Shown here piece by piece: positions 1 through 43,714 of a stretch of 64,000 bases of DNA. The DNA comes from Escherichia coli (GTDB lineage Bacteria > Pseudomonadota > Gammaproteobacteria > Enterobacterales > Enterobacteriaceae), in assembly GCF_003991155.1 (NCBI RefSeq), contig NZ_CP031293.1; one strand, written 5' to 3'. The notes below the pieces were generated by a model. It saw nothing but the letters and a program-made list of their open reading frames with translations. It was not told the DNA's origin and searched no databases. The translations under genes and the position numbers were made by a program. Position 1 is the stretch's first letter, and every line of letters begins with the position of its first letter.

Positions 1-153
1 CAGTAAATCGATAAACACATCTTCACTATCCAGCAGGAACGGGTTCATGCCGGCTTTAATAATTGCTTCTTCACGATAAGCGCGAGTGGTACGTTTTACT
101 GGCTCAATAACACGAATGCGGAACGGTTCAGGGAGATGTTTAAAGTTTTCCAT
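1..153 (-). CDS. tnaA: tryptophanase, N-terminal 51 codons only (gene runs off the window start)
   Basis: Minus-strand translation from ATG at 151-153 gives [51 protein letters not shown], the TnaA N-terminus with one substitution versus the K-12 protein as recalled; an in-frame ATG also lies 15 nt upstream. Confidence 0.85.
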
Positions 154-359
154 TACGTAATCCTTCATTTATTTTAAGGACAGAAAATTACGGAGATATT
201 GCAAATGCAATACCCGATAGTTCGCTAAAATATTTGCAAGAGACATCATTTATAAAAATGAATGATAGTCTTTACAAAAGCAGAAATAAGATATGCCAAA
301 CAGACAGGTTAGATGGAATTCAATCTATTTGACAAAAATGATGGTTACAGAAAGGCAAG

Positions 360-434
360 TTAAGGGTGGTGTTCAACAATCTTGTTGTCGATATTGAACC
401 ATTTTGAGGTCACACATATATGTAAGATATTCAT
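360..434 (-). CDS. tnaC: tna operon leader peptide (24 aa, MNILHICVTSKWFNIDNKIVEHHP)
   Basis: Own translation of minus strand; W12, D16 and terminal P24 are conserved; positions 21 and 23 differ from K-12 TnaC as recalled (DHRP); ~206 nt spacer to tnaA start. Confidence 0.8.
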   Translation of the reverse strand: MNILHICVTSKWFNIDNKIVEHHP

Positions 435-509
435 AATGCACTTATCCTCGAAAGACACGAGGTTACAGTATAATACTCAAGAAATTTGTCTATCCTGAAA
501 TTGTTTAAA

Positions 510-525
510 TGTGAATCGAATCACA
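510..525 (-). promoter_or_regulatory. CRP site TGTGAATCGAATCACA upstream of tnaC, with candidate -10 (TATACT/TATTAT) near 463-478
   Basis: Perfect TGTGA-N6-TCACA palindrome about 75-90 nt upstream of the tnaC ATG; the tna operon is known to be CRP-dependent. Confidence 0.6.
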
Positions 526-1488
526 GTTGGTTATTAGTGATATAAAATGACAATGATTTTGCATCATTAAAAATATTTATCAATTACGTTGATAAAACTA
601 TTACATGCAGGTGTTAATAAATGGTGATAAAAATGGTAAATGACAGAGATGTAATGTTGAAGATGATTCCTTGATGAGAATTATGTTCTACGGAAGTGGT
701 ACATCAACTTTTTGGGAAGGTATATAAATAAAGCAGAATAGATCACGTTTGGCACACATCTGATTACTCATGTAATTAACTAATTTCAGCACGGTTTTTC
801 TTGCTTTTTTAGAGTAATTAATATACCGATGCCCAAGATGAATATCATAAGAAATACTATCAAAATAATGTCTGGAATGAAATATTATACAGATGAATGA
901 TTGCGGTTACCTGATGATTTAAATAATGAATATGTGATTTGCTTGTTATATAAGAAAATTTAAATATTGCCGATAGTGTATTGAATAGTGCCTGCTTAAC
1001 GGGGTCCCCTGTTAAGTTGTCAAGCATGTTTATGAGACTGCTGGGGGATAAAAAGTCCCGGCACACATCCTGCTAACAGGACATCACTGCACTGTCTGAG
1101 CGATAAACGCTTGGTTGTGTCGTATTCCACGGCTCATTTTACGTGTGTAGTACGTTTGGGTATTGGTTTTCGGAGAGCAGCAAAGGCTGACAGGAACAAT
1201 GCCCGTTTGATGAGTTTATTGTCTCGTCTTGGCGGATGTTCGCCACATATTGATGAACCGTAACGCTAGGTAAAAAGGGGAAGCAAGACCCCACTGTTTC
1301 ACTTCAAAAGCCTTGCTTATGTAGAGTGATGAGATGGAGTGCCAGAAGGCCTGGAGTGGCAGAATAACGACTGCGGCATGCGTACCGGGAGCGATCATGG
1401 TTTGTTGTACCAGTGCCTGAGTGATGTCTGCCGCGGGGCGTTTTTCAAGATGAGGCTCAAGCTTGCAGGGCTGCCAGCTTCTTTTCAC

Positions 1489-2883
1489 TTAGCGAAGCCA
1501 GTTTTTCCGGCCTACGGCTACTCCCCGTAAGGCGTTCTCTGCGATGTTGTTGTCGATTTCCACCCAGCCATTGCTGCAGTACACGTTCAGGCCATCCCAC
1601 TGTTTCAGCAGGTATGCGAACGCTTTTGCCGTATCTGAGTGACGCGACAGTGTTTTCATCTGTTGCTGTATCCAGTCATACAGTGACTGCATCAGTGGCG
1701 CGGCTCTGGCTTTTCTTGCCGCCAGACGCTGTTCTGCTGAACAGCCCCGGACCTCTGCCTCGATGGCATACAGTTCACCGATACGCTGCAGGGCTTCCGT
1801 GGTGATGTAGGTGGGCGCTCTTGCATGCACATCGTGGATTTTTCTCCGGGCATGAGCCATACACGCGGCTTCCGTTATTCTGCCGGATTCGTATAACGCC
1901 CGGTAACCACCGTAAGCATCGGCCTGAAGCACACCGCTGTAACCGGCCAGGTGATTTTGTGGATGGATACCTTTCCGGTCCGGACTGTACGCGAACCAGA
2001 CCGCCGGGGGCATCTGTGAACCGGCGTTACGGTCATCACGGACGTAGACCCACAGCCGGGCTGTCCGGGTTTTACCGCTGCCCGGCTCCTGGACCGGGAC
2101 GGGGATATCATCAGCATGGACTTTACCGGGCATCAGCACATACTGGCGCAGGACGTCATACAGCGGCTCCAGCAGTTCAGCAACAGCACCTGTCCAGCGC
2201 CCCAGTGTGGCACGGCTCAGCTCCACTCCCTGACGACGGTATATTTCTGACTGGCGGTATAACGGCAGATGGTCTGCATATTTCCCGGTGACAACATGGG
2301 CCAGAAGCCCCGCTCCGGCATAACTGCGTGCAATGGGTTTTGAAGGTACTGGTGCCTGCACGATATGGTCGCACCGGCAACAGGCCTGTTTCGGACGTTG
2401 TGTTTCGATAACCTTAAAGGCGCTGCTGATAAGCTCCAGTTGCTCTGACACATCACATCCCAGAGAACTGAGTTCACCACCACAGGCAGGACAGCATTCC
2501 TCTTCCGGCCGGATAACCCGGGTTTCACGGGGAAGTGAGGCCGGTAACGGTTTACGGGCTGAAGACTGGCGCAGGGCGGATGGCAGTACCGGGTCATATT
2601 GCTCACCCAGCGTTTCCGCCATTTCTTCCTGAAGTGCGCTGATTCGCTCCTGTGCTTCCTGTATCTGCCGTTCGGTTTTTGCACGAAGTTTTTCTGAGCT
2701 TTTACCGAACTGCATACGTTGCAGTTTCGCAACCAGCGCCTTCAGCCGGTTGATTTCGGAAGCATAAGCCGCCACCCGCTGTGAGAGCAGGCGGTTGTAT
2801 TCAGCCATCTGGCGGATGGTGTCCTGTTGCGTCTGCAACAGTGCCCGCAGGCGGGCGTTCTCATGAGCAAGTGAGGTGTCCAT
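1489..2883 (-). CDS. IS66-family transposase TnpC (orfC), C-terminus apparently disrupted
   Basis: 464-aa ORF with zinc-finger-like CxxC pairs and DDE-region conservation; ends at KNWLR where family members continue; a 90-aa ORF (1216..1488) lies immediately downstream in the same orientation. Confidence 0.75.
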
Positions 2884-2902
2884 ATCCTCACTTTACAACG
2901 GG

Positions 2903-3250
2903 TTATATGCGGATTCCAGCGCGTTCCGTTCGTTTCGGGTGCTTCCAGTTGATACCTTCAAGAAGCATGGATAACTGAGCCGGAGTAAGGTGCACCTTGC
3001 CGTCACGGGTGACTGGCCAGACGAAGCGGCCCCGCTCCAGGCGTTTGGTGAAGAGGCACAGTCCGTCACTGTCAGCCCACAACACTTTTATCTGGTCACC
3101 CCGGCGTCCGCGGAAGATGAACAGGTGTCCGGAGAACGGGTCATCCTTCAGGACGTTCTGAACTTTTGATGCCAGGCCGTTAAAGCCATTTCGCATATCG
3201 GTGATACCTGCAACCAGCCAGATACGCGAACCTGCAGGGAGAGATATCAT
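2903..3250 (-). CDS. IS66-family TnpB (orfB)
   Basis: 115-aa ORF MISLPAGSRIWLVAGITDMRNGFNGLA..., the characteristic IS66 Orf2 N-terminus. Confidence 0.8.
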   Translation of the reverse strand: MISLPAGSRIWLVAGITDMRNGFNGLASKVQNVLKDDPFSGHLFIFRGRRGDQIKVLWADSDGLCLFTKRLERGRFVWPVTRDGKVHLTPAQLSMLLEGINWKHPKRTERAGIRI

Positions 3251-3927
3251 CAGTGGCTGCTCCCTTTTATTTCGCGGATAAGTGTCTGTAATAACGCCGG
3301 CGTCAGTTTACCTTTAAGCCTGAGAGTTCCGGCCGGCAGAACCAGCTCACAACACAGACTGTCGGACGGTGTATTTATCTGCTCTGGTTCCTGTGCGGGG
3401 GCCGGGATTTTATTATCCGGCTCCGGCGTTAACGTCACGGGAAGCAGTGCCGGCATATTTTTTCCGGAAGGCAGCAGGCCACCTTTCCGGTATTGATGGC
3501 GCCAGTTGAAGAGCAGGTTATCGTTGATTCCGTTTTCCCGGGCGATCTGCGCCACACAGGCTCCGGGCTGCAGTGACTGCTCCACTAAGGCGATTTTAAA
3601 CTCATAAGGGAAGTTGGGCCGCCGGGGACGTTTTTTTACCACGGGGGCTTCGGATATAACGGTGCTTTCAGGACGTACGACTGGTACCGTGGAAAATTGT
3701 CCGTAAAGGCAGGCATCAAGTTCCTGCTCCGACATGCCTGCGGGCAAAGGCCACGAAAGGCCAGCTCTCCGAAAGCGCACGAACATACTACAAACTGTTG
3801 ATTTTGGTACACCCAGGCGACGCCCGGCCACAACCCGGGGTAAATGTTCTTCAAAGTGAAGACGTAAAGCTTCAGTGATCCAGGTCCGGTGTTTCATACG
3901 ATAGTGTCCATTAAAAATGATGGACAT
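3250..3927 (-). CDS. chimeric ORF: IS21-family IstA-like N-terminus (HTH + LSWPLPAGMSEQELDACLY) fused to IS66-family TnpA (orfA)
   Basis: C-terminal ~130 aa (PNFPYEFKIALVEQSLQPGACVAQIARENGINDNLLFNWR) is IS66 TnpA-like; N-terminal ~95 aa resembles IS21 IstA N-termini. Confidence 0.55.
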   Translation of the reverse strand: MSIIFNGHYRMKHRTWITEALRLHFEEHLPRVVAGRRLGVPKSTVCSMFVRFRRAGLSWPLPAGMSEQELDACLYGQFSTVPVVRPESTVISEAPVVKKRPRRPNFPYEFKIALVEQSLQPGACVAQIARENGINDNLLFNWRHQYRKGGLLPSGKNMPALLPVTLTPEPDNKIPAPAQEPEQINTPSDSLCCELVLPAGTLRLKGKLTPALLQTLIREIKGSSH

Positions 3928-3976
3928 TATTTTTGTAGAGCCGGAGGAAACAGACCAGACGGTTTAAATGAGCCGG

Positions 3977-4180
3977 TTACTTTCCCTCGCGCCATTGTTG
4001 TCGCCATTTGAACAACAGATTGGCGTTAATGCCATTTTCAAGAGCAAGTTTTGAGATGGATATCCCGGGTTCACAGGAGGCAGCAACGAGCTGCTGTTTA
4101 AATTCGGGAGGATAATTAGGGCAGCCTTTTCGCCTGCCGGGAGTCACATTTTTCTGCATATCTGACACTTTGGTTCCCAC
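3977..4180 (-). pseudogene. second IS66-family tnpA-like fragment (67 aa)
   Basis: PNYPPEFKQQLVAASCEPGISISKLALENGINANLLFKWRQQW is paralogous to the TnpA segment at 3250..3650; far shorter than intact TnpA. Confidence 0.5.
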
Positions 4181-4836
4181 TACTTATTTGGTGGACACCA
4201 CTTTGTCTAATTCGTCAGATTCTGACCAGACGGTTCAGGCTGTACGCTTACGTAGAACGCAGGTTCGTTTCGGTTCAGGATCGCGACAGTGCCCCCTCAC
4301 CTTCAGCTACAGTTCCCATAGAATTTTTTTCAGGTCAGTAATACTGGCTGCTGTTGTTGTCAGGATTTGATAGCTCATAAGCCCCGTTTGTCTTATTGGT
4401 ATAAGAGCATCTTTAAAAGCACTCTTAAAAGTACTCGTGTTGAAAAAACAGCCAGAACAAATGAAGTATGGCTCTTTCCGACAACTCTCTAAAACGTTCT
4501 GTAACACATTCTGAGCGTTTTTACGTCAGTTAGGCACGCCGCTCAGTGCTTCTGAGCGGCCTTGTTGCCGCGATCTGTTGTCCTGATCTTGATAAATGAA
4601 CATCAATACGGCGTTCCGTCAGTGTTTACAATAACTCCCAATTCATAACTACTTTTAACACATTTGTGTGATTCCCCCTTTCTGCTGAAAATATAGTTAT
4701 TTCCAATATAATCAATGAGTTTTATTAATTTGTTGATTTTTTTTTTCATGTTTTTTTTGTGATAATTATCATTTGAATGTGAATGTTGCTCCTGAATAAT
4801 GTTTATCAAAGTTGTCTGGTACGAGGGAGAAATTTC

Positions 4837-6099
4837 ATGGCTATCATCATGGGGATCATCGCTGACGATTTTACTGGCGCGACTGATATTGCCTGCTTTA
4901 TGGCAGAGAATGGTTTTCGGGTTGCGCTGTTGCCCGGTTTGCATGCACTCACGCAGTCATGGGATGAAGAGGCTGATGCAATAGTCATTTCACTGAAAAG
5001 TCGTTCATTACCCGCGAATCAGGCAATTGAGCAGACTTTGCTAAGTTATCATTGGTTGCGTGACTGTGCGGGGGCGCAGCAGATCTATTTCAAATATTGC
5101 TCAACATTTGATTCCACTGCAGATGGCAATATCGGCCCGGTCAGCGATGCACTGATGAAGGTGATGGGCACACCTTATGTCGTGCATTGTCCCGCTTTGC
5201 CCCAAAATGGCCGAACAGTTATCCATGGACATCTTTTTGTTAACGGTATACCCCTTAACGAATCCGGCATGGAAAAACACCCCCTGAATCCAATGACCGA
5301 CACTAACCTGCTGCGCGTACTGGCTGCACAAACCCCCAATAGAGTTGGTAATCTTGATCTGAGGACAGTTCAACAGGGCGAGCAAGCCATCACCACCGCA
5401 CTTTCCCGTTGTCAGGCTGAAGGGAAGCAACACATTATTGTCGATACATTAACTGAAAATGATCTGCAAAGCCTGGCAAATGTATTACGCCATACACCTT
5501 TACTGGCTGGGGGATCCGGACTGGGTGGGGCGTTAGCCGCTTTTTTACAGCAACATCCTTATACGCCAGCCTCCGCGTTTCCCAATCCTGCCAGAACGGT
5601 AATCTTCTCCGGAAGTTGTTCAGTGATGAGTAATCGACAGGTGGATGCTTATAAATCGCATGCAGCCACGCAGTTGCTTGATGTTGCTCGTTGTCTGGAC
5701 GATGGCAATAGATATATCGATCAATTACTTGAATGGACAATTGCGCACATCAATGATCCGCTTGCTCCGTTGATTTACGCCACTCAACCTGCGGATGTGT
5801 TGAAATCTATACAGCAAACCTGGGGTGAACACGCGGCAAGTAAAGCCATTGAACAAACTTTTGCGCAGCTTAGCCAAAAATTGCAGGTCGCGGGTGTCAA
5901 CACTTTTATTGTTGCTGGGGGAGAAACTTCCGGGACTGTAGTGGAAGCGCTAAATGTGAAACGGCTAACAGTGGGGAGCACTATTACGCCGGGCGTACCA
6001 TGGGTTTTTTCGGCAGAACCGCCCCTGGCACTGGCGCTGAAATCTGGCAATTTTGGGGAGCCTGATTTTTTCATTAAGGCTCAGGAGCATGGATTATGA
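4837..6099 (+). CDS. four-carbon acid-sugar kinase family protein (DUF1537; OtnK/YgbK-like 3-oxo-tetronate kinase homolog)
   Basis: N-terminal IADDFTGATD motif and overall length (420 aa) typical of DUF1537 kinases; RBS GAGGGAG upstream; stop overlaps next start. Confidence 0.75.
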   Translation: MAIIMGIIADDFTGATDIACFMAENGFRVALLPGLHALTQSWDEEADAIVISLKSRSLPANQAIEQTLLSYHWLRDCAGAQQIYFKYCSTFDSTADGNIGPVSDALMKVMGTPYVVHCPALPQNGRTVIHGHLFVNGIPLNESGMEKHPLNPMTDTNLLRVLAAQTPNRVGNLDLRTVQQGEQAITTALSRCQAEGKQHIIVDTLTENDLQSLANVLRHTPLLAGGSGLGGALAAFLQQHPYTPASAFPNPARTVIFSGSCSVMSNRQVDAYKSHAATQLLDVARCLDDGNRYIDQLLEWTIAHINDPLAPLIYATQPADVLKSIQQTWGEHAASKAIEQTFAQLSQKLQVAGVNTFIVAGGETSGTVVEALNVKRLTVGSTITPGVPWVFSAEPPLALALKSGNFGEPDFFIKAQEHGL

Positions 6100-6734
6100 G
6101 TGAACTCATCGAACAAAAATTACGTGAACAACTCGTCTATTACGGGCGTTCGCTCTTTATGCGCGGTTTCAGTAGTGGCGGTTCCGGCAATATCAGCGTC
6201 AAACTGGCTGAAGACCGTTTTTTGGTCACGCCGACCAATTCCTGTCTTGGCGAGTTAGATAGTGAAAGAGTGAGTCTTATCGATATTCATGGCAACCATA
6301 TCAGTGGTGATAAGCCGTCAAAAGAGGTGCCTATGCATCTTGCCTGGTATCGACATCGTCCGAACTGTGGAGCGGTGGTACATCTGCACTCGCCATGGCT
6401 GACGGCACTTTCGTGTTTACCTTGCACAACACCAGAGAATTGCTTACCGCCGCTCACTCCCTATTACGTGATGCGTGTGGGGAAATTACCATTATTGCCT
6501 TATTTCAAACCAGGACATGAGGATATCGCTACGGCATTAAGCCATATAGCGGCCGACTCTACCGCAGCTCTGTTGGCGAATCATGGCCCCGTTGTCAGCG
6601 GAAGAACATTGCGCGAAGCGGTATTTAATGCCGAAGAGCTGGAAGACAGTGCCCGTATCTGGCTGACCTTAAAACCACTTGGCTATGTTCCTCTTTCGGC
6701 AAAAGACATCGCTGAACTGGAACAGGCCAGATGA
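6096..6734 (+). CDS. class II aldolase/adducin-family protein (OtnC/YgbL-like decarboxylase/aldolase)
   Basis: 212 aa, SGGSGNISVK and HLHSPW metal-binding-type motifs; ATGA overlap with upstream kinase gene. Confidence 0.75.
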   Translation: MSELIEQKLREQLVYYGRSLFMRGFSSGGSGNISVKLAEDRFLVTPTNSCLGELDSERVSLIDIHGNHISGDKPSKEVPMHLAWYRHRPNCGAVVHLHSPWLTALSCLPCTTPENCLPPLTPYYVMRVGKLPLLPYFKPGHEDIATALSHIAADSTAALLANHGPVVSGRTLREAVFNAEELEDSARIWLTLKPLGYVPLSAKDIAELEQAR

Positions 6735-6749
6735 TAACGAGGTGAGAGG

Positions 6750-7556
6750 ATGATACCCGAGCAAAGGCGAGACTTTATTTACCGCTATGTCCATGAGAAA
6801 AACGTTGCTTCATTTAATGAACTGGCTGAGTTGATGAGCGTTTCGCATATGACAGTGCGTCGTGATATTCAATTACTGGAAGAAGAAGGCAAAGTTATTA
6901 CCATAAATGGCGGCGTTAAGCTGAACAACCAACTTAAATTGGAGTTACCGTGGCGAGAAAAAGCTGAACTGCATCATGATATTAAGCGTGACATGGGGCA
7001 GCTTGCTGCGATGTTGATCGAACCCGGGCAGACACTCTATTTAGATGCCGGAACCTCATTATTTGAGGTCGCAAAAGCAATCGTTGCCAGCCAGTGCTTT
7101 AATCTCACTATCGTGACAAATGATTTCTCTATCAGCCATTACCTGATGGATATGCAACATATCACGCTTTACCACACCGGGGGATTGGTAGATCAACGCA
7201 ATCGTTCTTGTTTGGGGAAAAGTGCAGCTGATTTTCTGCGCACGATTAATATCGATGTTGCATTTCTTAGCTCCTCTTCATGGGATACACAAAGAGGAAT
7301 GTCAACACCAAATGAAGGTAAAGCTACAGTGAAAGAGGCGGCGCTTACGGTCTCCCGTCGCCGCGTATTAGTGTGTGATAGCAGTAAATTCGGTAAATAC
7401 GGAATGTTCCATATATGCGAGCTCAGCCAATTGACCGATATCATTTCAGATAACCAGTTGCCTTTATCGGCGCAGGAAAGCATTACACAGCTGGGCGTGA
7501 AATTACATCTGGTTAATAGCCGGGAGGGAACGCAGCATGTTGAAGCTGGCGGCTAA
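6750..7556 (+). CDS. DeoR-family transcriptional regulator
   Basis: N-terminal HTH (FNELAELMSVSHMTVRRDIQLLEEEGKV) and C-terminal sugar-phosphate-binding-like domain. Confidence 0.8.
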   Translation: MIPEQRRDFIYRYVHEKNVASFNELAELMSVSHMTVRRDIQLLEEEGKVITINGGVKLNNQLKLELPWREKAELHHDIKRDMGQLAAMLIEPGQTLYLDAGTSLFEVAKAIVASQCFNLTIVTNDFSISHYLMDMQHITLYHTGGLVDQRNRSCLGKSAADFLRTINIDVAFLSSSSWDTQRGMSTPNEGKATVKEAALTVSRRRVLVCDSSKFGKYGMFHICELSQLTDIISDNQLPLSAQESITQLGVKLHLVNSREGTQHVEAGG

Positions 7557-8313
7557 TCTCGACTGGTTGTTCACAGAACTGCCGATGTCTGCACGGTTTC
7601 ATGCAGCCAGACGGGAGGGGTTTCGTGCTGTTGAAGGAATGTTTTTCTGTCAGCATTCTCTGGATATGCTGAGAATTGCGCAGCAAGAATCGGGAATGAG
7701 CGTGGTGCTGATGAATGCTCCGGCAGGTGACTGGCTACGAGGTGAGCGTGGCCTGGCTGCACTTCCTGGCCGCGATGATGAATACCTGAACAGTTTGCTC
7801 ATTGCCCGCCGATATGCAGGGACGCTGGGATGCAGGCAGGTTCATGTTATGGCGGGCCTTCGGGATCACTCTGTGACAGAAGATGAACAACTGGAGTTAC
7901 TGGTTAATCGCTTGTGCATAGCCTGCGATGTGCTGGCGGAAAAAGATATTACAGTATTAATCGAACCCCTGAATTCTGAAGATATGCCTGGCTATATTAT
8001 TAATAGCCTTCCTCGAGCAAAAGATATTATCCGGCGGGTTTCTCACCAAAATATTGGTTTGCAGTTTGATATTTATCATTGCCAGAAAATTCATGGTAAT
8101 GTCACCCAAAATATAGATAAATATTTATCAATAGTTAAGCATTTTCAGATTGCCTCTGTGCCTGGTCGCCACGAACCAGGTTCTGGTGAGCTAAATGATA
8201 CGTGGATATTAAATTTTATTAATCAAAAAAACTTCCAGGGCTGGATTGGCTGTGAGTATAAACCTTCCACACTGACAACCGAGTCATTACGCTGGATGAA
8301 ACCATATTTATAA
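7537..8313 (+). CDS. Hyi/OtnI-like TIM-barrel isomerase (hydroxypyruvate / 2-oxo-tetronate isomerase family)
   Basis: 258 aa; strong similarity to E. coli Hyi as recalled (AGDW..GERG, LIEPLN, GW(I/V)GCEYKP, LRWM.PY). Confidence 0.8.
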   Translation: MLKLAANLDWLFTELPMSARFHAARREGFRAVEGMFFCQHSLDMLRIAQQESGMSVVLMNAPAGDWLRGERGLAALPGRDDEYLNSLLIARRYAGTLGCRQVHVMAGLRDHSVTEDEQLELLVNRLCIACDVLAEKDITVLIEPLNSEDMPGYIINSLPRAKDIIRRVSHQNIGLQFDIYHCQKIHGNVTQNIDKYLSIVKHFQIASVPGRHEPGSGELNDTWILNFINQKNFQGWIGCEYKPSTLTTESLRWMKPYL

Positions 8314-8334
8314 AATCTTTTTCTGGAGGAAAAT

Positions 8335-9147
8335 ATGTCGGATACCGTCATAATTTCGTTGGCACCTGTGGCCGCAGACTGCACCAGAGTCATACCCGAA
8401 GAATTGGCGCAGGAAATTTTGGCTTGCGTTGAATATGGAGCAGCAATTGTTCATTTACACGTTCGTGATAAGCAAGGCAAGTTAACGCCAGATACAACCG
8501 ATTTCCAGTCAACCATTGATCTCGTCAGACATCAATCAGACTTAATTATTCAGGCTTCTACGGGCGGAGTCTCTGCCATGTCAATAGCCGAGCGTTGCGC
8601 GCCTCTGGACTGCCCTGGCGTTGAAATGGCGTCGCTGAATGTAGGGTCGGTGAACCTTGGTGATGCCGTCTACGCTAATCCAACACCGGATGTCGAATAT
8701 TGTTCACAGCAAATTACCGCGCGTAGTATTGTTCCTGAATTTGAAGTGTTTGAAATTGGAATGGTTAATAATATTTTAACCCTCAATGAAAAGATAAAAT
8801 TCAGAAACCCCATGTTATTTAATATTGTACTTGGTCATAGAGGAAGTTCTCCGGCGACAATAGATGCATTAATTGCGATGCGCAGTATGATCCCGCGAGA
8901 TGCATTATGGGGTATTACTCACTTTGGCAGAAAGAATTTTGATGTTATTGCTGCTGCGGTAGCTATGGGAGCTAGCGAGGTCAGAATTGGTTTTGAAGAT
9001 AGTTATTATTTAAGTGCAGAGGAGATGGCGGAACAAAATTATCAGCAAGTTAAAAAACTCGCCAGACTTATTCGTAGTATGGATAAACAAGTGGCCTCAC
9101 CGGAAATTGCCCGACGGATATTAAATATCCCAATCCGGCAGCAATGA
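8335..9147 (+). CDS. DUF849 / BKACE-family beta-keto acid cleavage enzyme
   Basis: 270 aa with HLHVRD motif characteristic of 3-keto-5-aminohexanoate cleavage enzyme family; good RBS (GGAGGAAAA). Confidence 0.7.
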   Translation: MSDTVIISLAPVAADCTRVIPEELAQEILACVEYGAAIVHLHVRDKQGKLTPDTTDFQSTIDLVRHQSDLIIQASTGGVSAMSIAERCAPLDCPGVEMASLNVGSVNLGDAVYANPTPDVEYCSQQITARSIVPEFEVFEIGMVNNILTLNEKIKFRNPMLFNIVLGHRGSSPATIDALIAMRSMIPRDALWGITHFGRKNFDVIAAAVAMGASEVRIGFEDSYYLSAEEMAEQNYQQVKKLARLIRSMDKQVASPEIARRILNIPIRQQ

Positions 9148-9168
9148 CGACAGACAGGACATTTTACT

Positions 9169-10479
9169 ATGACTATAACAACCCTAATACAAAAAGCAGG
9201 ACTTACAATCTGTATAGCTGGCGGTGTACTCGCGGCAACAGGCGGGTTGATGCAATCCGCTGTGCTCTGGCAACCTGGATTGGTGATGCTTACTGCAGGC
9301 TTTGCCCTCGGTGCTGGTTACTGGCCGATACTTCGAAGTTATCAATTCACGTTATGGATTATCGCAGGTTTCGTGGCTGCGATGACCTGGTCGATGGATT
9401 TGATTGTCTGGGGCGGGTTTAACATTACTCACAAATGGATCGTGTTTTTAGTCATTCAGGCAACGATGTTCAGTATGGGTACCAAACTGACGATTCAGGA
9501 TTTTATCGATGTTGCCAAAATGCCATGGGCGGTGTTTATTGGCACCTTCTGCCACTTTGTGATTATGCCGTTGCTGGGGCTAACCATTACGCTGTTATTT
9601 GATTTTCCGCCAGAAGTTGCGGTGGGGATCCTGCTCATAGGTGCCTGCCCTAGCGGTTTATCATCAACTGTTATGGTTTATATCGCTAACGCGAACCTCG
9701 CGCTGGCGGTATCAATCGCCGCAGTTTCTACGCTGGCAGCAACGGTTATGACGCCGTTGTGGGTAAATTTGCTGGCTGGCTCCATGATTGACATCCAACT
9801 TACCGCAATGGTTATGGACGTGGTGAAAATTGTCCTTATACCAATTGGTGCAGCAATTTTGCATGACTACCTGAAAACGTACGCTGGAGTTCGAGGTCGA
9901 CGAACCGTGCAGCTTCTCGCCGGGATCTGCGCCCTGTGGCTAATTTACATGAGCTCTGGTGGTTGGGACTATCTCTTTGACAACGCCAGTGCAGACGTAC
10001 AAATGTATGCCGTGGTACTGAACTTTGTCACGGGTGGCATTGTATGGGCGTTGTTCTATAACTGGCTGTACAGTCGCGTGGAAGGCATTCAAAAGATTAT
10101 GCCAACCATCTCTATGATTGGGATCATCTTCTTTACCACCACCGCTGCGGCAGCTGGTCGTGATAACCTGTTGCAGGTTGGTTTCCTGCTTTGTTTCGCC
10201 ATGTTGTTGCATAACCTTGGCGGTTTCCTGATTGGCTATCTGATGAGTCGCTGGATATTCCGCATGGACGAACAATCGTCCCGTACCGTAGCCTTTGAAG
10301 TGGGATTGCAAAACGGAGGTATGGCGTCAGGTCTGGCAGCGGCAATGGGCAAACTGGCTACAGTTGGCCTTGCCTCTGCAGTCATGACACCTCTCGGCAA
10401 TGTGAGTGGTTCGCTGTTGGCAAACTACTGGCGCAAAAAAGACGCTCGTAAAGCACAGACTGCGAATAAAGACAAATAG
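9169..10479 (+). CDS. BASS-family (bile acid:sodium symporter / SBF-like) transporter with N-terminal extension
   Basis: Highly hydrophobic 436-aa ORF, GACPSGLSSTVMVYIANANLALAVS signature region; start codon uncertain. Confidence 0.65.
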   Translation: MTITTLIQKAGLTICIAGGVLAATGGLMQSAVLWQPGLVMLTAGFALGAGYWPILRSYQFTLWIIAGFVAAMTWSMDLIVWGGFNITHKWIVFLVIQATMFSMGTKLTIQDFIDVAKMPWAVFIGTFCHFVIMPLLGLTITLLFDFPPEVAVGILLIGACPSGLSSTVMVYIANANLALAVSIAAVSTLAATVMTPLWVNLLAGSMIDIQLTAMVMDVVKIVLIPIGAAILHDYLKTYAGVRGRRTVQLLAGICALWLIYMSSGGWDYLFDNASADVQMYAVVLNFVTGGIVWALFYNWLYSRVEGIQKIMPTISMIGIIFFTTTAAAAGRDNLLQVGFLLCFAMLLHNLGGFLIGYLMSRWIFRMDEQSSRTVAFEVGLQNGGMASGLAAAMGKLATVGLASAVMTPLGNVSGSLLANYWRKKDARKAQTANKDK

Positions 10480-10514
10480 TCTGCCTGTTGTAACCTTTCA
10501 AAAGGAAACTCAAT

Positions 10515-10934
10515 ATGACGACATTGACCCTGAAACAAGCATTGCTTGCAGTAGAGTATGCGCTTGATCTTGCAGTGCAACAATATGCTGGCCGTCCTTT
10601 AAGTGTGGCAGTATGCGATGTTAATGGTGAATTGCTGAGCTTTGCCCGCATGGATAGAGCCAAACTGTTAACTATTGAATTAACGCAGCGTAAAGCACGA
10701 ACCAGTAGTCGTCTGGGCTGTACGACAGCAGCATTCTTACAGCGTCTACAAAAAGAGCAACTTGATATCAGCTATTTTGGAGATCCCCGGTTTACCGCAT
10801 TACCAGGAGGGATCCCTATTCTGGTTAAAGGAAAATGCATTGGTGCTGTTGCTGTGGGGGGATTATCCGCACGAGAAGATCATGATGCGGCACAGGCTGT
10901 CGCAGATAAACTGCTTGAGGAGATGACCAAATGA
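10515..10934 (+). CDS. GlcG/DUF336 (HbpS-like) protein
   Basis: 139 aa, typical DUF336 length and GAVAVGG glycine-rich motif. Confidence 0.6.
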   Translation: MTTLTLKQALLAVEYALDLAVQQYAGRPLSVAVCDVNGELLSFARMDRAKLLTIELTQRKARTSSRLGCTTAAFLQRLQKEQLDISYFGDPRFTALPGGIPILVKGKCIGAVAVGGLSAREDHDAAQAVADKLLEEMTK

Positions 10935-11581
10935 AAAAAATAGCCATGCTTCACACCAGTTCAGCCACGCTTGCGGTGATGCAACAACTGATAGGCGATA
11001 TCATGCCTGAGGCTGAAGTGATGCATCTGGTTGAGGAGTCTATGATTAAGCAGGTGATGAAAGCGGGCGGTGTTACGCCAGATATCGCCGCACGGATCGC
11101 TGATTACATACGGATCGCTGAAAAAGCCGACTGCGATATTTTCATTACCGCTTGTTCATCAATTGGTACTGCTGTCGAACAGTGTCAATTTATGACTTCA
11201 GTACAACTGGCACGGATTGACTGTGCGATGGTGGATGAAGCAATCAACAAAGGGGAACACATTGCTGTGCTGGCAACGGTGGCCACAACGCTGAAACCGA
11301 CGCTTGATTTTGTCCGGCGAAAAGTTCAGGAAAGTGGAAAACAGCGGATTATTACACCTGTTTTAATGGAAGAAGCCTTCCATGCGTTATTGAATGGTGA
11401 TATGGGAACGCATGACCGCATTGTGAGTGAAGGATTACAAAAGGCCTTTGGGCAGGCAGATGTTATTATGTTAGCGCAGGCATCGATGGCACGGGTGCTG
11501 CAAAATATGCCTGAGCCTCCGGTTCCGGTATTAACATCGCCAGAAAGCGGTATTCGCTGGTTGAAAACATTCGCGAGTTAA
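10931..11581 (+). CDS. AroM-like / Asp-Glu-hydantoin racemase superfamily protein
   Basis: 216 aa; architecture resembles E. coli AroM as recalled; ATGA overlap with upstream gene; family assignment tentative. Confidence 0.45.
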   Translation: MKKIAMLHTSSATLAVMQQLIGDIMPEAEVMHLVEESMIKQVMKAGGVTPDIAARIADYIRIAEKADCDIFITACSSIGTAVEQCQFMTSVQLARIDCAMVDEAINKGEHIAVLATVATTLKPTLDFVRRKVQESGKQRIITPVLMEEAFHALLNGDMGTHDRIVSEGLQKAFGQADVIMLAQASMARVLQNMPEPPVPVLTSPESGIRWLKTFAS

Positions 11582-11684
11582 GTCAGGTATAGTTTCTATA
11601 TTAAAGACGTTTACACATAATGGTGTACAGGCCCATTCAGAAACGGAACTGGGAATTTATTAACGGATAATCCGGAAACGTATT

Positions 11685-11716
11685 AAATGGCAGAAGGTAA
11701 CTACTTTCTGCCATTT
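11685..11716 (+). terminator. perfect 11-bp inverted repeat (AAATGGCAGAA / TTCTGCCATTT, 10-nt loop) ~105 nt downstream of the operon
   Basis: Seen directly; no clear T-tract follows, so terminator function is uncertain. Confidence 0.35.
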
Positions 11717-12101
11717 CACAGACAGGATGTACATATTAATCGGCCATGATGGTTGACATAAAAAATGCATCGGCAGTGATGTGGCAAGTTTTTCCCGGAC
11801 AATGTTTTTCTTCATCCCACTTGCAGAAAATATATAATATTATATTTTATATAACATTTTCTAACTCATTGAATACACTTGCAAATCTTCTCATTCTTAC
11901 TTAGAAATATTATTAATTTTAACGTTCTTTGTTGAATGTTTGTTTGGTTACAGCCATCTAATTTTTTAAATGCACAGTATCTGTGGATAACTTTGCGTAA
12001 ACACTGGGGACAGAGCTCGTTGAACCAGAGAAAGCACGCATGAAAACAAAATACTCATTCTTTAACCATTCTGTATAAGATCAGATGTCAGATCTGCTCA
12101 A

Positions 12102-12157
12102 TTCCGCTTTCCCGGTCACTGACTCGCTACGCTCGATCGTTCGGTTGCGGCGAGCGG
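12102..12157. other. ~56-bp segment resembling ColE1/pMB1-type plasmid backbone sequence
   Basis: TTCCGCTTTCCCGGTCACTGACTCGCTACGCTCGATCGTTCGGTTGCGGCGAGCGG versus pBR322/pUC backbone as recalled; roughly 50 of 56 positions match. Confidence 0.4.
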
Positions 12158-12455
12158 AGTCTCCTTTCTCAAAATCAGGCTTCGTGCATCTGGTCACAAA
12201 CCCGTATATCAATCATCATTGATGAGAAATTATCTTTATGAGGGCGTTTTTTTGGTTTCAGTTTTGCACGGAACCAGGAGATTTTTGGGAGTTGTTTTAT
12301 GTATGTTGTAAATAAAATTTTAATATTGACATCTACTGTACGTGCATAGAGTACGCCGGTGACCAACGTCAGCATTCCACTGTTCCAGTAACTAATTAAC
12401 GTAAGTGAAGTTATCGAGGAAGCAATACTGGATGGAGAAGTCGTCCTTGAGGTAT

Positions 12456-12737
12456 TCACTTTCCTTTCGTTCTGCCCATTAGTGGACAGCTAACTAGTGG
12501 CAGGACATCGGAGTACAGCACCTTCCCGTTGTTATTTATCAGCACGGCAGCTTTCTGGTTATTGACGAGCACAGTTTTCACGCCGCCGCCAAAGTTGTGG
12601 AAGACTCGCACCAGTGACTCATGGGTATGTTCAGCATCCTGTATGGGGCAGCAAAGAGATAGAAGCGACGTGAGAACCCCCTGCGTATTAGTCGCGAAGT
12701 TAATGCAGCATCGTTGTCTGACCAGTACCCCAGTCAT
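12456..12737 (-). pseudogene. IS21-family transposase IstA fragment (central DDE region, truncated)
   Basis: Translation ...QDAEHTHESLVRVFHNFGGGVKTVLVNNQKAAVLINNNGKV...GRTKGK closely parallels IS21 IstA and stops inside the TKGK(V)E motif; flanking frames 12738..13143 look like further degenerate remains. Confidence 0.6.
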
Positions 12738-13219
12738 GCTGGAGCTGGTAATCCGGCTGAGTTTTGAAGCGAACCGTTTTCTTCGATTTCCGTCTGGGAA
12801 GTAATCAGACTCAGCACGGACAAAAATTGCAGCGCCCGGATGGCACGGGTAATGGTCAGATTACCGGATGCGGATTAGGTGCCGCGTAGTGAAGCGCGCC
12901 GGATTCAGAGTCGCTAGTATGGTCATACAGCGAAGGAAAGCCGCCAATTTTTGTGCCGGACGTGGAATATACAGCGAATGCTGATGTAAAAGGCGCTCGT
13001 AATATTTTAGCTGCGGGACATACTGTGCTTGCCAGGGAAGGGATGGTGCAGTCAGACCACCCGTTGAAGCGAAATGAACCTGAACCATACGACAACCTGA
13101 AAGTAGCAGGAATCCACGCCCTGAAGGACGTGGAGGAAGTCAAATCGATGGTAGGTTGTAGGTTTATGGCAACATCTGCTTCATTAGATACATGTCGATA
13201 TACAGAACATATATCACAT

Positions 13220-13903
13220 TTATGAATTTTCTTTTATCCTGCTATTTTGGGGTTTATTGTGAAAGTAACTTTCAAGAACAGGCAGATAGTACCAGGATTC
13301 AGGATGTTTTTTCAGGAATTCATTTAAAAATGATTGCATTGTTAAATATAAATCTTTGTTATTTCCTTTATGTATAAAATCATAAATCCACACGTAATTA
13401 CTGTAATTAGAATCAAAGTATGATGCAATAAAATACGCATTAGCACCTGCGCGTCTTACAATATATTCCCAACCACCGTGCAACCATGCTTTCTTATTCA
13501 GTAGACAAGCTTCTCTTACAGAACCATAGTTTTCGCTACTATACACTGAGGGTATATCTGGTAATATAATCAAATTAGCTCCGTTTTTTACAAGCTTAAT
13601 CATGGCCTTTATTTCTGTAATGCCATTTTTTTCGAAAACAGTAATCTGATGCCCAAGTCCAGAAAGTGAATGTATTAATTCCAACTCATTGAGACCATTT
13701 ACAGAACTTCTATAAAAAATAAAATGTGAGTTAGATTTATATGAAAGTAGAATTTTATGAATGGCTGTCCAGTATTCACCAGAATGTAAAACTACAAACA
13801 CAGAATTATTAAGTGTTTTATGTAATGCATCCAAAAAACAGTCTTCATATATAAATTTTGTACGGTGTGCATACTCATGAAGGGTATTCATAGACACAAT
13901 CAT
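13220..13903 (-). CDS. hypothetical AT-rich protein with LpxL/LpxM-like (lipid A late acyltransferase family) features, lacking the usual N-terminal region
   Basis: 227 aa; H-S-G-E-Y-W and ILPDIP motifs resemble HxGxWE and LPDQD motifs of LpxL-family enzymes; markedly AT-rich. Confidence 0.35.
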   Translation of the reverse strand: MIVSMNTLHEYAHRTKFIYEDCFLDALHKTLNNSVFVVLHSGEYWTAIHKILLSYKSNSHFIFYRSSVNGLNELELIHSLSGLGHQITVFEKNGITEIKAMIKLVKNGANLIILPDIPSVYSSENYGSVREACLLNKKAWLHGGWEYIVRRAGANAYFIASYFDSNYSNYVWIYDFIHKGNNKDLYLTMQSFLNEFLKKHPESWYYLPVLESYFHNKPQNSRIKENS

Positions 13904-13983
13904 TTTAGCCCTATTACTGACAATAATGATAATTGATATTCTGAGCGTATCGAAAATAAGTCCGAATTATCAGAAGGTTTATT

Positions 13984-14756
13984 ATGAAAATACTCATTGC
14001 AGGGGCAACCGGAAGTATTGGTCTTCATGTCGTGAATACCGCTATTGAAATGGGTCATCAGCCCGTGGCGCTGGTCAGAAATAAACGCAAAGTAAAATCT
14101 CTTCCTCGTGGAACAGATGTTTTTTACGGCGATGTTTCAATGCCGGAAACACTCACCGAATTGCCGAAAGATATTGATGCCATCATCTTCACTCTCGGTT
14201 CTGATGGCCAGGGGCGTATTGGTGCCAGAGCGATCGATTACGGAGGAGTGCGTAATATTTTGCGAATATTCAGGGATACACCTGTTCGTATCAGCTAATG
14301 ACCACGATTGGCGTGACTGAGCGGCTCAGCACTTGGAATCAACGCACTGAGGTTCATGACAGGAAAAGACGTGCCGAGCGTCTGGTCAGGGCCAGCGGTC
14401 ATCCCTATATTATCGTCCGGCCCGGCTGGTTTGATTACAACAATGATGATGAACACAGGATCGTTATGCTTCAGGGGGATCGTCGCCATGCAGGAACACC
14501 GGAAGATGGTGTGATATCCCGGGAGCAAATCGCCCAGGTTCTGGTCAGTGCCCTGACCAACGACGAGGCAAAAAATAAAACGTTCGAGCTGGTGGCTGAA
14601 CGAGGTGAAGCACCACAGGATCTTACCCCACTGTTTGCAGAACTGCAGACTGATGATGCACAAAAAAATGATGGGGTTCTGGACATAGACAATATGCAGC
14701 TGAGAGAAGAACCGGAGTGCATTATTAACGAGCTGAACCTGTATTCAAAAAATTAA
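13984..14756 (+). pseudogene. NAD(P)H-binding NmrA/atypical-SDR-family oxidoreductase split by a frameshift at ~14296
   Basis: First ORF (104 aa) starts with Rossmann motif MKILIAGATGSIG; second ORF (152 aa) continues the family in another frame; junction AGCTAATGACC. Confidence 0.6.
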
Positions 14757-14897
14757 ACAATCTACAACCCTGACAATTTTGTCATATAGCGGTCAGCCTC
14801 ATGACAGTTTAAGTCTGTATATTTACATACACAAACGGGGATAGTTCCCTTGATACGAATCCAGTTTTAAACATAGATTTTAAAAGAGGTATTAAAT

Positions 14898-15149
14898 ATG
14901 AAAGCATTACTTATTACTACATTGGTCATGGGGTTTATTTCAGTGAATGCCGCATCTGCAGCTCAGGAAATTAACCATGCAGATGGGAAAGAAAAGATAG
15001 GTGTAGTCTCAGCCAGCAATGCCTATACGCTTGATGAATTATCGAATACGCTTTCTCGTAAGGCTGATGAACAAGGAGCAACATCGTTCAAAATTCTGTC
15101 AACCACGGGGAATAACCGGCTGCACGGGGTTGCTGAAATCTATAAGTAA
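14898..15149 (+). CDS. BhsA/YdgH/McbA-family (DUF1471) small secreted stress protein
   Basis: 83 aa with signal peptide and C-terminal ...LHGVAEIYK closely paralleling E. coli BhsA. Confidence 0.75.
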   Translation: MKALLITTLVMGFISVNAASAAQEINHADGKEKIGVVSASNAYTLDELSNTLSRKADEQGATSFKILSTTGNNRLHGVAEIYK

Positions 15150-15205
15150 ATCATTAGTATCCTGAGCAGGATGTGTCTTAACCCTCTTATAGCGAGCGTC
15201 GATTT

Positions 15206-15541
15206 ATGTTTAGAACAGAAGACATCATCGATGAGATAACCCAATGGATTGATTCAAATTTACATAAGCCGCTGAAGATAGAGGATGTTGCTGCGCGGGC
15301 AGGATACTCGAGGTGGCATCTTCAGCGGATTTTTGTGCAGGTGAGAGAAATTAGCCTTGGGAAGTACATAAGAGATACGAAACTTAGACTTGCAGCAAAA
15401 GATCTTATCGCGACTAATGAGCCAGTGATGGTTATCGCCTTTAAATATGGATTCGATTCACAACAAACTTTTACTCGGATTTTCTTTAAAAAATATAAAT
15501 TGCCACCATTGAAATATAGGGTAATGACTCCAACTTATTGA
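15206..15541 (+). CDS. MarA/SoxS/Rob-type small AraC-family regulator, 3' end replaced by IS1 sequence
   Basis: Two HTH regions (SRWHLQRIF... / ...QQTFTRIF) like SoxS; IS1 left end begins at 15520 inside the ORF so the last ~7 codons and the stop are IS1-derived. Confidence 0.7.
15511..15519. repeat. IS1 target-site duplication, left copy (GAAATATAG)
   Basis: Identical 9-mer directly flanks both IS1 ends. Confidence 0.8.
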
Positions 15542-16038
15542 TAGTGTTTTATGTTCAGATAATGCCCGATGACTTTGTCATGCAGCTCCACCGATTTTGA
15601 AAACGACAGCGACTTCCGTCCCAGCCGTGCCAGGTGCTGCCTCAGATTCAGGTTATGCCGCTCAATTCGCTGCGTATATCGCTTGCTGATTACGTGCAGC
15701 TTTCCCTTCAGGCGGGATTCATACAGCGGCCAGCCATCCGTCATCCATATCACCACGTCAAAGGGTGACAGCAGGCTCATAAGACGCCCCAGCGTCGCCA
15801 TAGTGCGTTCACCGAATACGTGCGCAACAACCGTCTTCCGGAGCCTGTCATACGCGTAAAACAGCCAGCGCTGGCGCGATTTAGCCCCGACGTATCCCCA
15901 CTGTTCGTCCATTTCCGCGCAGACGATGACGTCACTGCCCGGCTGTATGCGCGAGGTTACCGACTGCGGCCTGAGTTTTTTAAATGGCGGAAAATCGTGT
16001 TGAGGCCAACGCCCATAATGCGGGCGGTTGCCCGGCAT
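15535..16038 (-). CDS. insB: IS1 InsB (expressed as InsAB' by frameshift)
   Basis: 167-aa ORF matching IS1 InsB. Confidence 0.85.
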
Positions 16039-16232
16039 CCAACGCCATTCATGGCCATATCAATGATTTTCTGGTGCGTACCGGGTTGAGAAGCGGTGTA
16101 AGTGAACTGCAGTTGCCATGTTTTACGGCAATGAGAGCAGAGATAGCGCTGATGTCCGGCGGTGCTTTTGCCGTTACGCACCACTCCGTCAGTAGCTGAA
16201 CAGGAGGGACAGCTGATAGAAACAGAAGCCAC
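15957..16232 (-). CDS. insA: IS1 InsA
   Basis: [42 protein letters not shown]... Confidence 0.9.
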
Positions 16233-16287
16233 TGGAGCACCTCAAAAACACCATCATACACTAAATCAGTAAGTTGGCAGCATCACC

Positions 16288-16296
16288 GAAATATAG
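16288..16296. repeat. IS1 target-site duplication, right copy (GAAATATAG)
   Basis: Identical 9-mer directly flanks both IS1 ends. Confidence 0.8.
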
Positions 16297-16522
16297 AAAC
16301 GCGGAAAGGAGAAAAAAACTTCACCAGCCCATGTCTTAAGTTCTGTCAGTATGGCTACAGCCTGTTTGCTGAGTGGCACAAGGTGTGGTGTTCGAATCTT
16401 GGTTCCCCAATGAGAGTTCAGGCGGTGTGGGCAAATAAAAAAGAAAACATAAATAAAACCATCCGACCGTTGGTGGGGCTGGATGGTTATTCATTATTTC
16501 TATGTCACTGAACTTTCATTCA

Positions 16523-19769: not shown

Positions 19770-19778
19770 GGAACGGCA

Positions 19779-43651: not shown

Positions 43652-43694
43652 TGCCCACTCCATGTGATATCGATTGCAAGGAAAGTAAGTTTAC

Positions 43695-43714
43695 AACTGT
43701 GTTTATATACAGTT
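43695..43714 (-). promoter_or_regulatory. LexA (SOS) box AACTGTGTTTATATACAGTT upstream of dinD
   Basis: CTGT-N8-ACAG palindrome 44-63 nt upstream of the dinD start. Confidence 0.75.

Follow-up and report, generated by a model that had tools for sequence, protein, structure and literature searches.

An eight-gene operon in an Escherichia coli genomic island as a candidate catabolic system for L-aceric acid or a close analogue

The eight genes and their protein families

The DNA analysed here, referred to as the window, is a 64-kb stretch from Escherichia coli, and all coordinates given without a label are window positions. An operon of eight genes, all on the plus strand, lies at 4837-11581. 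The genes encode a DUF1537 kinase of the OtnK type (4837-6099), a class II aldolase-fold decarboxylase of the OtnC type (6096-6734), a YgbI-like regulator of the DeoR/GlpR family (6750-7556), a Hyi/OtnI-like TIM-barrel isomerase (7537-8313), a zinc TIM-barrel enzyme of the BKACE (DUF849) family (8335-9147), a long BASS-family transporter of 436 amino acids (9169-10479), a small GlcG/HbpS-like (DUF336) protein (10515-10934) and an Asp/Glu-racemase-fold enzyme, the product of gene 8 (10931-11581). The RefSeq annotation of E. coli 2016C-3878 gives the same eight coding sequences, with the kinase starting at 4837. Four-nucleotide ATGA overlaps join the kinase to the decarboxylase gene (6096-6099) and the GlcG-like to the racemase-fold gene (10931-10934), the regulator and isomerase genes overlap by 20 nt (7537-7556), and the remaining intergenic gaps measure 15-35 nt. 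The eight co-directional open reading frames (ORFs) and these overlaps had been described in the original prediction, and both the ORF calls and RefSeq agreed with it. An alternative start of the kinase ORF at 4783 was rejected, as the ribosome-binding site and the conservation begin at 4837, and 4756-4800 is conserved non-coding DNA.

Proteins were placed in families by means of the NCBIfam equivalog cut-offs, which are 350 bits for OtnK (NF043035), 250 for OtnC (NF043034), 325 for OtnI (NF043033), 353 for Hyi (TIGR03234) and 400 for the YgbI-type regulators (NF040890). The kinase passed the OtnK cut-off with 510 bits over residues 5-417 (134 bits for OiaK), and its translation contains the IADDFTGA motif; it is 48% identical to K-12 YgbK, and its Klebsiella orthologue carries PF07005 and PF17042. 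The decarboxylase passed the OtnC cut-off with 289 bits and is 52% identical to K-12 YgbL. The two passed cut-offs, along with identities of 48-52% to YgbK and YgbL, argue for a pathway end that handles the C4 compound 3-oxo-tetronate. The isomerase fell below both the OtnI (282 bits) and the Hyi (275 bits) cut-offs, is 38% identical to K-12 YgbM and could be assigned to the hydroxypyruvate isomerase family only, its substrate being uncertain. The regulator reached 261 bits, also under its cut-off, and is 44% identical to K-12 YgbI. Judged by these scores and identities, the kinase, decarboxylase, isomerase and regulator genes are paralogues of the core otn genes.

A canonical otn operon carries a dehydrogenase and a GntP permease alongside OtnI, OtnK and OtnC. 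Family matches identified no HIBADH-family dehydrogenase and no GntP permease among the eight products, as had been predicted, and YgbJ and YgbN are therefore without a counterpart. Given that the dehydrogenase, the permease and an isomerase above the OtnI cut-off are all missing, the operon is not a canonical otn operon.

The BKACE protein matched the Kce structure 2y7d at E=4.7e-39, with the zinc-ligand HxH (HLHVRD) and GFED motifs aligned, and its homologues carry PF05853; both the homology and the metal motifs thus place it in DUF849. It scored below all four NCBIfam BKACE equivalog cut-offs, with 243 bits against 382 (Kce), 180 against 725, 162 against 430 and 146 against 350. The same fold also contains a cis-epoxysuccinate hydrolase that is independent of coenzyme A (CoA). 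The transporter matched PF01758 at E=5.7e-29 and failed the cut-offs for PanS (172 against 400 bits) and TIGR00841 (171 against 326). Sequence matches of the GlcG-like protein in the PDB were NahX (7e-11), the haem-binding protein 4nkp (1.5e-10) and EfgA (5e-10), and its orthologue carries PF03928, in line with DUF336 homology. As the DUF336 proteins include the formaldehyde sensor EfgA, the GlcG-like protein is, by analogy, a possible accessory linked to an aldehyde product.

For gene 8, the Pfam scan gave PF01177 (Asp/Glu/hydantoin racemase) at E=3.7e-16 and two insignificant matches. The label "AroM-like", under which the protein had first been described, had to be abandoned, since the scan returned no AroM match; on its domain content the protein is a generic Asp/Glu-racemase-fold protein. 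The other seven family calls of the original prediction held in the profile searches. The AlphaFold model of gene 8 has a pLDDT of 93.8 and TM-scores of 0.72-0.79 to Asp/Glu racemases at ~15% identity, and the fold search confirmed the fold and found no close relative. A PDB search with the single sequence returned no significant match, and a profile search returned only weak matches to allantoin and hydantoin racemases. Across 40 homologues the catalytic Cys75 (motif CSSxG) is invariant, while the second catalytic Cys position, which aligns with the catalytic Cys of allantoin racemase, is occupied by an invariant Gln183 (AQxSM). The protein therefore has the fold of the Asp/Glu racemases and one of their two catalytic cysteines, and with Gln183 in the second position it is unlikely to act as a two-base racemase.

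Conservation of the operon and the racemase-BASS module

In identical order, the eight genes recur in Yersinia frederiksenii, in Budvicia, in a second E. coli allele and, beside sucCD, in the Klebsiella oxytoca complex; the arrangement is therefore not due to chance. An alphaproteobacterial metagenome-assembled genome (MAG) contains seven of the eight genes, all but GlcG, in a shuffled order, and in a proteobacterial MAG the BASS gene is apparently replaced by two other upstream genes. These findings bear on the view that two unrelated modules merely lie next to each other in a patchwork island and form no single pathway. The island is indeed full of insertion sequence (IS) and plasmid fragments, and minimal loci with BKACE, GlcG and racemase alone exist. 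We nevertheless consider this view highly improbable, given the translational coupling across all junctions, the occurrence of the eight-gene order in four enterobacterial genera at 63-85% identity and in chromosomal contexts outside islands, and the shuffled seven-gene version in the alphaproteobacterium.

Rhamnogalacturonan-II (RG-II) surpasses all other known plant glycans in complexity, and the way in which gut Bacteroides depolymerise it is well mapped. L-aceric acid, 3-C-carboxy-5-deoxy-L-xylose, is a rare branched acid sugar of this pectin. The RG-II utilisation loci of B. thetaiotaomicron are said to have been described by Ndeh et al. 2017. A scan anchored on the racemase-fold gene was performed over the species genomes of GTDB; at least 560 relatives were detected, 80 loci were fetched, and ORFs were clustered over 90 loci. 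The racemase-fold gene was counted in 89 of the 90, DUF1537 in 75, the long BASS gene in 66 and a gene for a 416-aa protein directly upstream in 61, as compared with 15 for BKACE, 11 for GlcG and 10 for the Hyi-like isomerase. The 11 loci with a GlcG-like gene were solely of the proteobacterial BKACE type. The 416-aa protein is a RuBisCO-like protein (RLP), nearest to OiaX with 517 bits against a cut-off of 700, and the DUF1537 kinase beside it is nearest to OiaK (403 bits against 700). Such sub-cut-off scores are to be expected if the substrate is homologous and not identical.

The widespread module is thus RLP-kinase-racemase-BASS. The racemase-fold and long BASS pair was found in at least 60 species, which belong to the Bacteroidota, Verrucomicrobiota, Planctomycetota and Chloroflexota. 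By the definition adopted in this analysis, namely adjacent racemase-fold and long BASS genes with a DUF1537 gene, the E. coli operon belongs to the module. Its transporter is 45% identical over 408 aa (full length) to the transporter of the aceric acid hydrolase locus of Aurantibacter, and gene 8 is 38-44% identical over its full length to the Bacteroidota members. The complete four-gene set was seen in more than 50 species (loci L016-L090, for example L029:5334-11932 and L082:4797-12029), often directly after a gene for aceric acid hydrolase, and its RLP looks like an undescribed RLP function.

The glycosidases near the module point to RG-II. A GH127 gene lies within 10 kb in ~21 loci of Bacteroidota, Verrucomicrobiota, Planctomycetota, Chloroflexota and Firmicutes. 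Of the 11 GH127 proteins scanned from the loci, eight passed the NCBIfam cut-off of 950 for aceric acid hydrolase and the others scored 839-944; the Lachnospiraceae GH127 reached 731 bits on the same model. The aceric acid hydrolase that has been characterised is BT1003, a GH127 enzyme (PMC10850190), whose orthologues lie beside the racemase-BASS-kinase module in numerous Bacteroidota, Verrucomicrobiota, Chloroflexota and Planctomycetota. Nearby genes further include GH78 and GH106-type rhamnosidases, GH2, a BT0996-like enzyme, a fucose permease, a GH140 apiosidase, and transketolase, FGGY and ABC genes of the apiose type.

The presence of the apiose-type genes raises the question of whether the module serves another acid sugar of RG-II or of plants, such as D-apionate or another apiose-derived acid, Dha or Kdo, or an unrelated branched hydroxy acid, in which case the adjacency to aceric acid hydrolase would reflect only the general organisation of RG-II loci. 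OiaK and OiaX of the D-apionate pathway are the enzymes closest to the widespread module's kinase and RLP, and genes for apiosidase, apiose-type transketolase and FGGY kinase often lie nearby. We regard such a substrate as unlikely. D-apionate requires oxidation (ApnO) and is down-weighted on redox grounds, as no dehydrogenase is conserved in the module; apiose loci already have their own isomerase, kinase and transketolase beside it; and in the compact Aurantibacter locus (SusC-SusD-aceric acid hydrolase-RLP-kinase-racemase-BASS) aceric acid hydrolase is the sole glycosidase. Dha and Kdo are alpha-keto acids, which would suit pyruvate aldolases better than enzymes for beta-keto acids. Apiose-type sets comprising a split transketolase, an FGGY kinase, an ABC transporter and an AGE-like isomerase were seen beside the module at L036:1144-9952, L073:69-7369 and L094:2903-7293, which suggests combined catabolic islands for the rare sugars of RG-II.

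The gene counts also bear on the substrate first proposed for the operon. The original prediction had the operon import and degrade a pre-oxidised 2-oxo or beta-keto acid sugar, for example an oxidation product of ascorbate or tetronate. Spelled out as a scheme, a C4-C6 oxo-acid from ascorbate or tetronate breakdown (2-oxo-tetronate, 2,3-diketogulonate or similar) would pass through OtnI, OtnK and OtnC, while BKACE, GlcG and the racemase-fold protein would trim or detoxify side products. The passed OtnK and OtnC cut-offs, the retained OtnI-like isomerase and the missing dehydrogenase are consistent with it, as is the transporter, the relatives of which carry hydroxy and keto acids and the best NCBIfam match of which is PanS. 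The transporter and the protein of gene 8, which this scheme treats as accessories, are instead the most widely conserved core and are repeatedly tied to RG-II glycosidases. Genes for ascorbate, lactonase or diketogulonate functions were found in none of the ~95 related loci; in addition, 2-oxo-tetronate alone would need three of the six enzymes, and the isomerase fails the OtnI cut-off. The scheme is accordingly improbable as a whole. Its logic that no oxidation is needed survives. Its ascorbate, tetronate and 2-oxo-tetronate substrates are not supported, and nothing in the ~95 loci points to ascorbate. The tie between the core genes and RG-II glycosidases points rather to a branched aldose-acid that would reach the beta-keto level by isomerisation than to one oxidised beforehand.

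The BKACE subfamily was sampled in the same way through its neighbourhoods. A racemase-fold gene lies within 5 kb of every sampled BKACE homologue of at least 50% identity, in all nine neighbourhood types. The E. coli protein is 53% identical to the BKACE of a Lachnospiraceae operon with the order racemase-GH127-DUF1537-BKACE. Paenibacillus has GH2 and GH78 genes followed by racemase-DUF1537-BKACE-apiosidase, and Oscillospiraceae have transketolase and FGGY kinase genes, racemase-BKACE and GH78; the Firmicutes BKACE orthologue thus adjoins the same RG-II-type glycosidases. Desulfovibrio carries racemase-TRAP-GntR-BKACE, and one NCBI genome assembly carries racemase-TRAP-GntR-cupin-BKACE-HIBADH. 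On metagenome contigs, a natural 696-aa fusion of the racemase-fold domain to the DUF1537 kinase (L092:5704-7794, L093:4322-6412) is followed by the BKACE gene. Minimal loci consist of transporter, racemase and BKACE alone, with or without GlcG.

These loci can be set against the canonical BKACE reaction, in which acetyl-CoA and a 3-keto acid such as a deoxy-keto sugar acid would be converted to acetoacetate and an acyl-CoA, with the Otn-type enzymes acting in parallel or downstream. In its favour, the E. coli protein is closest to Kce, with the zinc ligands and the aligned catalytic Glu retained; the proposed deoxyribonate pathway has BKACE enzymes acting on 3-keto sugar acids (PMC6365646); and a CoA-transferase gene lies ~2 kb away in one anaerobe locus. 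This gene, on the opposite strand in L095, is the sole one of its kind near the BKACE loci; inside the operons of this type, over the nine neighbourhood types sampled, no CoA-handling gene was found, and none for acetoacetate or acyl-CoA, which sets them apart from canonical BKACE pathways. There is likewise no dehydrogenase to make the 3-keto acid, all four equivalog cut-offs were missed, and the CoA-independent hydrolase shares the fold, so that the canonical reaction appears a rather poor candidate. The deoxyribonate cluster of K. michiganensis was considered as the same system and rejected, being a different system without BKACE.

A candidate pathway for L-aceric acid

Gene content and neighbourhood suggest that the operon may have been acquired horizontally for the breakdown of a branched acid sugar of plant cell walls, with L-aceric acid or a close analogue as the likeliest choice, an assignment that we find plausible and put forward tentatively. 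With more confidence, the eight genes probably encode one acid-sugar pathway that leads to dihydroxyacetone phosphate (DHAP) through the OtnK- and OtnC-type enzymes and is entered non-oxidatively by way of the racemase-fold and BKACE enzymes.

In the proposed pathway, the substrate would be scavenged as the free monosaccharide and imported by the long BASS transporter. The single-Cys racemase-fold enzyme would perform a redox-neutral aldose-to-ketose isomerisation of aceric acid, giving HOCH2-CO-C(OH)(COO-)-CH(OH)CH3, a beta-keto acid and the methyl homologue of 3-oxo-isoapionate. This homology would explain the sub-cut-off OiaK- and OiaX-like proteins, the lack of a conserved dehydrogenase and the presence of an anion transporter. 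As OtnK and OtnC types expect a C4 substrate, the C6 acid must lose two carbons. The BKACE-family zinc enzyme would stabilise the alpha-carbanion of the metal-chelated beta-keto acid, and a retro-aldol reaction would yield acetaldehyde and a C4 oxo-tetronate; the loss of acetaldehyde from this branched beta-keto acid would leave exactly 3-oxo-tetronate. The mechanism of Kce reportedly (Bellinzoni 2011) begins at a zinc-stabilised alpha-carbanion of a beta-keto acid. A lyase role of the BKACE protein is chemically reasonable, because the quaternary alpha-carbon excludes the canonical deprotonation, and a retro-aldolase of this kind would fit the minimal loci, the lack of CoA-handling genes and the CoA-independent cis-epoxysuccinate hydrolase.

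The Hyi/OtnI-like isomerase would interconvert the 2-oxo and 3-oxo forms or help in the first isomerisation. The OtnK-type kinase would produce 3-oxo-tetronate 4-phosphate, from which the OtnC-type decarboxylase would release DHAP and CO2, and the YgbI-like protein would keep the operon repressed as long as neither the substrate nor an intermediate is available. Carbon would balance as C6 = DHAP + CO2 + acetaldehyde, with no dehydrogenase required. The kinase and cleavage steps could occur in either order; the racemase-kinase fusion suggests that the kinase step of Firmicutes comes immediately after that of the racemase. Homologues of the OtnK/OtnC type accept C4-C6 3-oxo acid sugars (PMC12994016).

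A broader claim, which we consider possible and rather doubtful, is that the operon and its relatives would be the first catabolic routes for L-aceric acid, with a cofactor-free isomerase of the racemase fold and at least three interchangeable ways of taking apart the branched beta-keto acid. These would be the RLP with an OiaK-like kinase; BKACE as a CoA-independent retro-aldolase leading to OtnK and OtnC; and BKACE with the racemase-kinase fusion. RLPs decarboxylate or transcarboxylate/hydrolyse 3-oxo-isoapionate-4-P, according to the account of Carter 2018 given in PMC6302742.

Several points weigh against L-aceric acid as the substrate and against the proposed chemistry. The substrate is assigned through guilt by association at 40-53% identity, a range in which specificity can change. 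Neither the E. coli island nor the DNA flanking the operon in Klebsiella and Yersinia contains a glycosidase, RG-II-type or other, so the enterobacterial loci would depend on cross-feeding, with gut Enterobacteriaceae using aceric acid released by RG-II-degrading Bacteroidota. To our knowledge, CoA-independent aldolase activity is unprecedented in the BKACE family, and we know of no precedent for the racemase fold as a sugar aldose-ketose isomerase. The roles given to the Hyi-like isomerase and the GlcG-like protein are explained unconvincingly, and the C-C cleavage could be the work of the class II aldolase-fold protein itself, leaving BKACE another role. In the literature searched, no publication was found that describes aceric acid catabolism, the operon or its racemase-BASS module, and an earlier mention is possible. 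Within the same literature, nothing relevant was found for kinase, RLP, racemase and RG-II together, and no paper for DUF1537 with BKACE or RG-II with DUF1537; that the operon had not yet been characterised, as the original prediction supposed, thus held to this extent.

Comparison with known systems helps to place the operon. The catabolism of L-threonate and D-erythronate (K-12 ygbI-ygbN; LtnD/DenD, OtnI, OtnK, OtnC), which is said to have been worked out by Zhang et al. 2016, has a paralogous kinase, decarboxylase, isomerase and DeoR regulator and shares the predicted end in DHAP and CO2. Unlike ygbI-ygbN, the E. coli operon is without the HIBADH dehydrogenase and the GntP permease and adds the BKACE, long BASS, GlcG-like and racemase-fold genes. 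The oxidative D-apiose/D-apionate pathway (ApnO, OiaK, RuBisCO-like OiaC/OiaX) likewise concerns a branched RG-II sugar and a beta-keto acid intermediate with a quaternary alpha-carbon, which is phosphorylated at the CH2OH beside the ketone and then decarboxylated; the sister module uses OiaK- and OiaX-like proteins. In contrast to that pathway there is no oxidoisomerase here, new partners come in with the racemase-fold enzyme and the BASS transporter, and the E. coli version has BKACE, OtnK and OtnC types in place of the RLP. By analogy, the operon would in effect couple the last part of the threonate/erythronate pathway to an entry route resembling that of D-apionate.

With the known BKACE/DUF849 enzymes (Kce of lysine fermentation, the deoxyribonate cleavage enzyme) the protein shares the zinc TIM-barrel, the metal ligands and a predicted beta-keto acid substrate; it differs in lacking CoA-linked partner genes, in reaching no equivalog cut-off and in its proposed CoA-independent retro-aldol reaction. 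The RG-II loci of B. thetaiotaomicron account for depolymerisation, whereas the E. coli operon is without any glycosidase. In the Ltn3D bypass cluster of Paracoccus litorisediminis (Watanabe et al. 2026, PMC12994016), a non-canonical upstream step likewise feeds enzymes of the OtnK/OtnC type. That bypass uses an SDR dehydrogenase, of which the E. coli operon has none, and its description does not mention BKACE, racemase, BASS or GlcG.

No account of the fate of aceric acid, a signature sugar of RG-II, was found, and the analysis yields a concrete set of candidate genes for it. As these are present in genetically tractable E. coli and Klebsiella, they can be tested directly. If the proposal is true, a racemase-fold subfamily (at least 560 relatives in species-representative genomes) and a distinct subfamily of long BASS transporters would gain functions, BKACE chemistry would reach past acetyl-CoA-dependent cleavage, RuBisCO-like proteins would have one more role, and it would become clear how enterobacteria scavenge rare sugars derived from pectin. 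If it is wrong, the conserved operon would still stand as a variant of the oxo-tetronate pathway, as yet uncharacterised and with no explanation for three of its enzymes.

Flanking signals and the genomic island

The 676-bp stretch upstream of the operon has ~40% GC, compared with 47-50% within it, and its conservation across genera is limited to the last ~90 nt. A candidate control block at 4756-4800 (plus strand), 37-81 nt before the start codon, holds a CRP-like TGTGA-N6-TCAT element followed by a promoter-like TTGAAT-16 nt-AATAAT site (match at 4773-4800); it is kept in E. coli (two alleles), Klebsiella, Yersinia and Budvicia, and its flanks are not conserved. The TGTGA-type elements upstream of the operon are possible CRP and DeoR operator sites. 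These include a TTCACA-N6-TGTGA palindrome near 4655-4672 that is shared by E. coli, Klebsiella and Budvicia.

An Rfam scan of 3900-12300 gave no upstream match to a leader RNA or riboswitch, which was rejected on these grounds; the sole match was a sub-threshold snoRNA downstream of the operon. Since only the last ~90 nt are conserved and Rfam gave no match, the stretch is more likely junction DNA with a promoter or operator than a long transcribed leader. Of the "~600-bp AT-rich leader" predicted earlier, the AT-richness is therefore retained and the leader is not. Downstream, a 14-bp hairpin at 11685-11716 (plus strand; -18.8 kcal/mol, z = -5.6) starts ~105 nt past the last stop codon. It is a possible terminator, weak as an intrinsic one because it is without a long U tract.

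The operon lies within a mosaic island at tRNA-Sec (18000-18094), which carries an integrase and fragments of IS66, IncFII RepA and TnpB. The operon is rare in the species: among 5,426 complete E. coli genomes, 21 carry a complete copy. Carriage on plasmids was rejected, as a megablast search of the operon against 72,556 PLSDB plasmids returned no match. Debris of mobile elements was observed on both sides, with remnants of IS66 TnpA, TnpB and transposase in 1-3927 and fragments of IncFII RepA and InsQ/TnpB in 12100-13150. This debris suggests that a plasmid or IS carried the operon before it was captured at selC.

Further features of the island and its surroundings were noted. A frameshifted SDR oxidoreductase gene lies in the same island at 13984-14756 (plus strand), 2.4 kb downstream of the operon. 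It was considered as the "missing" dehydrogenase and rejected, as it does not stand beside the operon in Klebsiella or Yersinia, and it is probably unrelated island cargo. An extra insertion of ~776 bp, the size of an IS1, is located at 15540-16310 (ORF 15535-16038, minus strand) between a helix-turn-helix gene and the island integrase; it is missing from all 21 complete island-bearing genomes, which cover 90% of 12000-20000. A second copy of tnaCAB ends just before the start of the window. A second integrase-bearing element, resembling a phage satellite, is inserted between yicC and dinD at ~43600-60300, coordinates that were mapped from NZ_CP029747.1 (4362087-4378727) and may be offset by the 776-bp insertion. 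Its genes encode an antirepressor, a DUF5906 primase-like protein, a DNA ejection protein and a PerC regulator.

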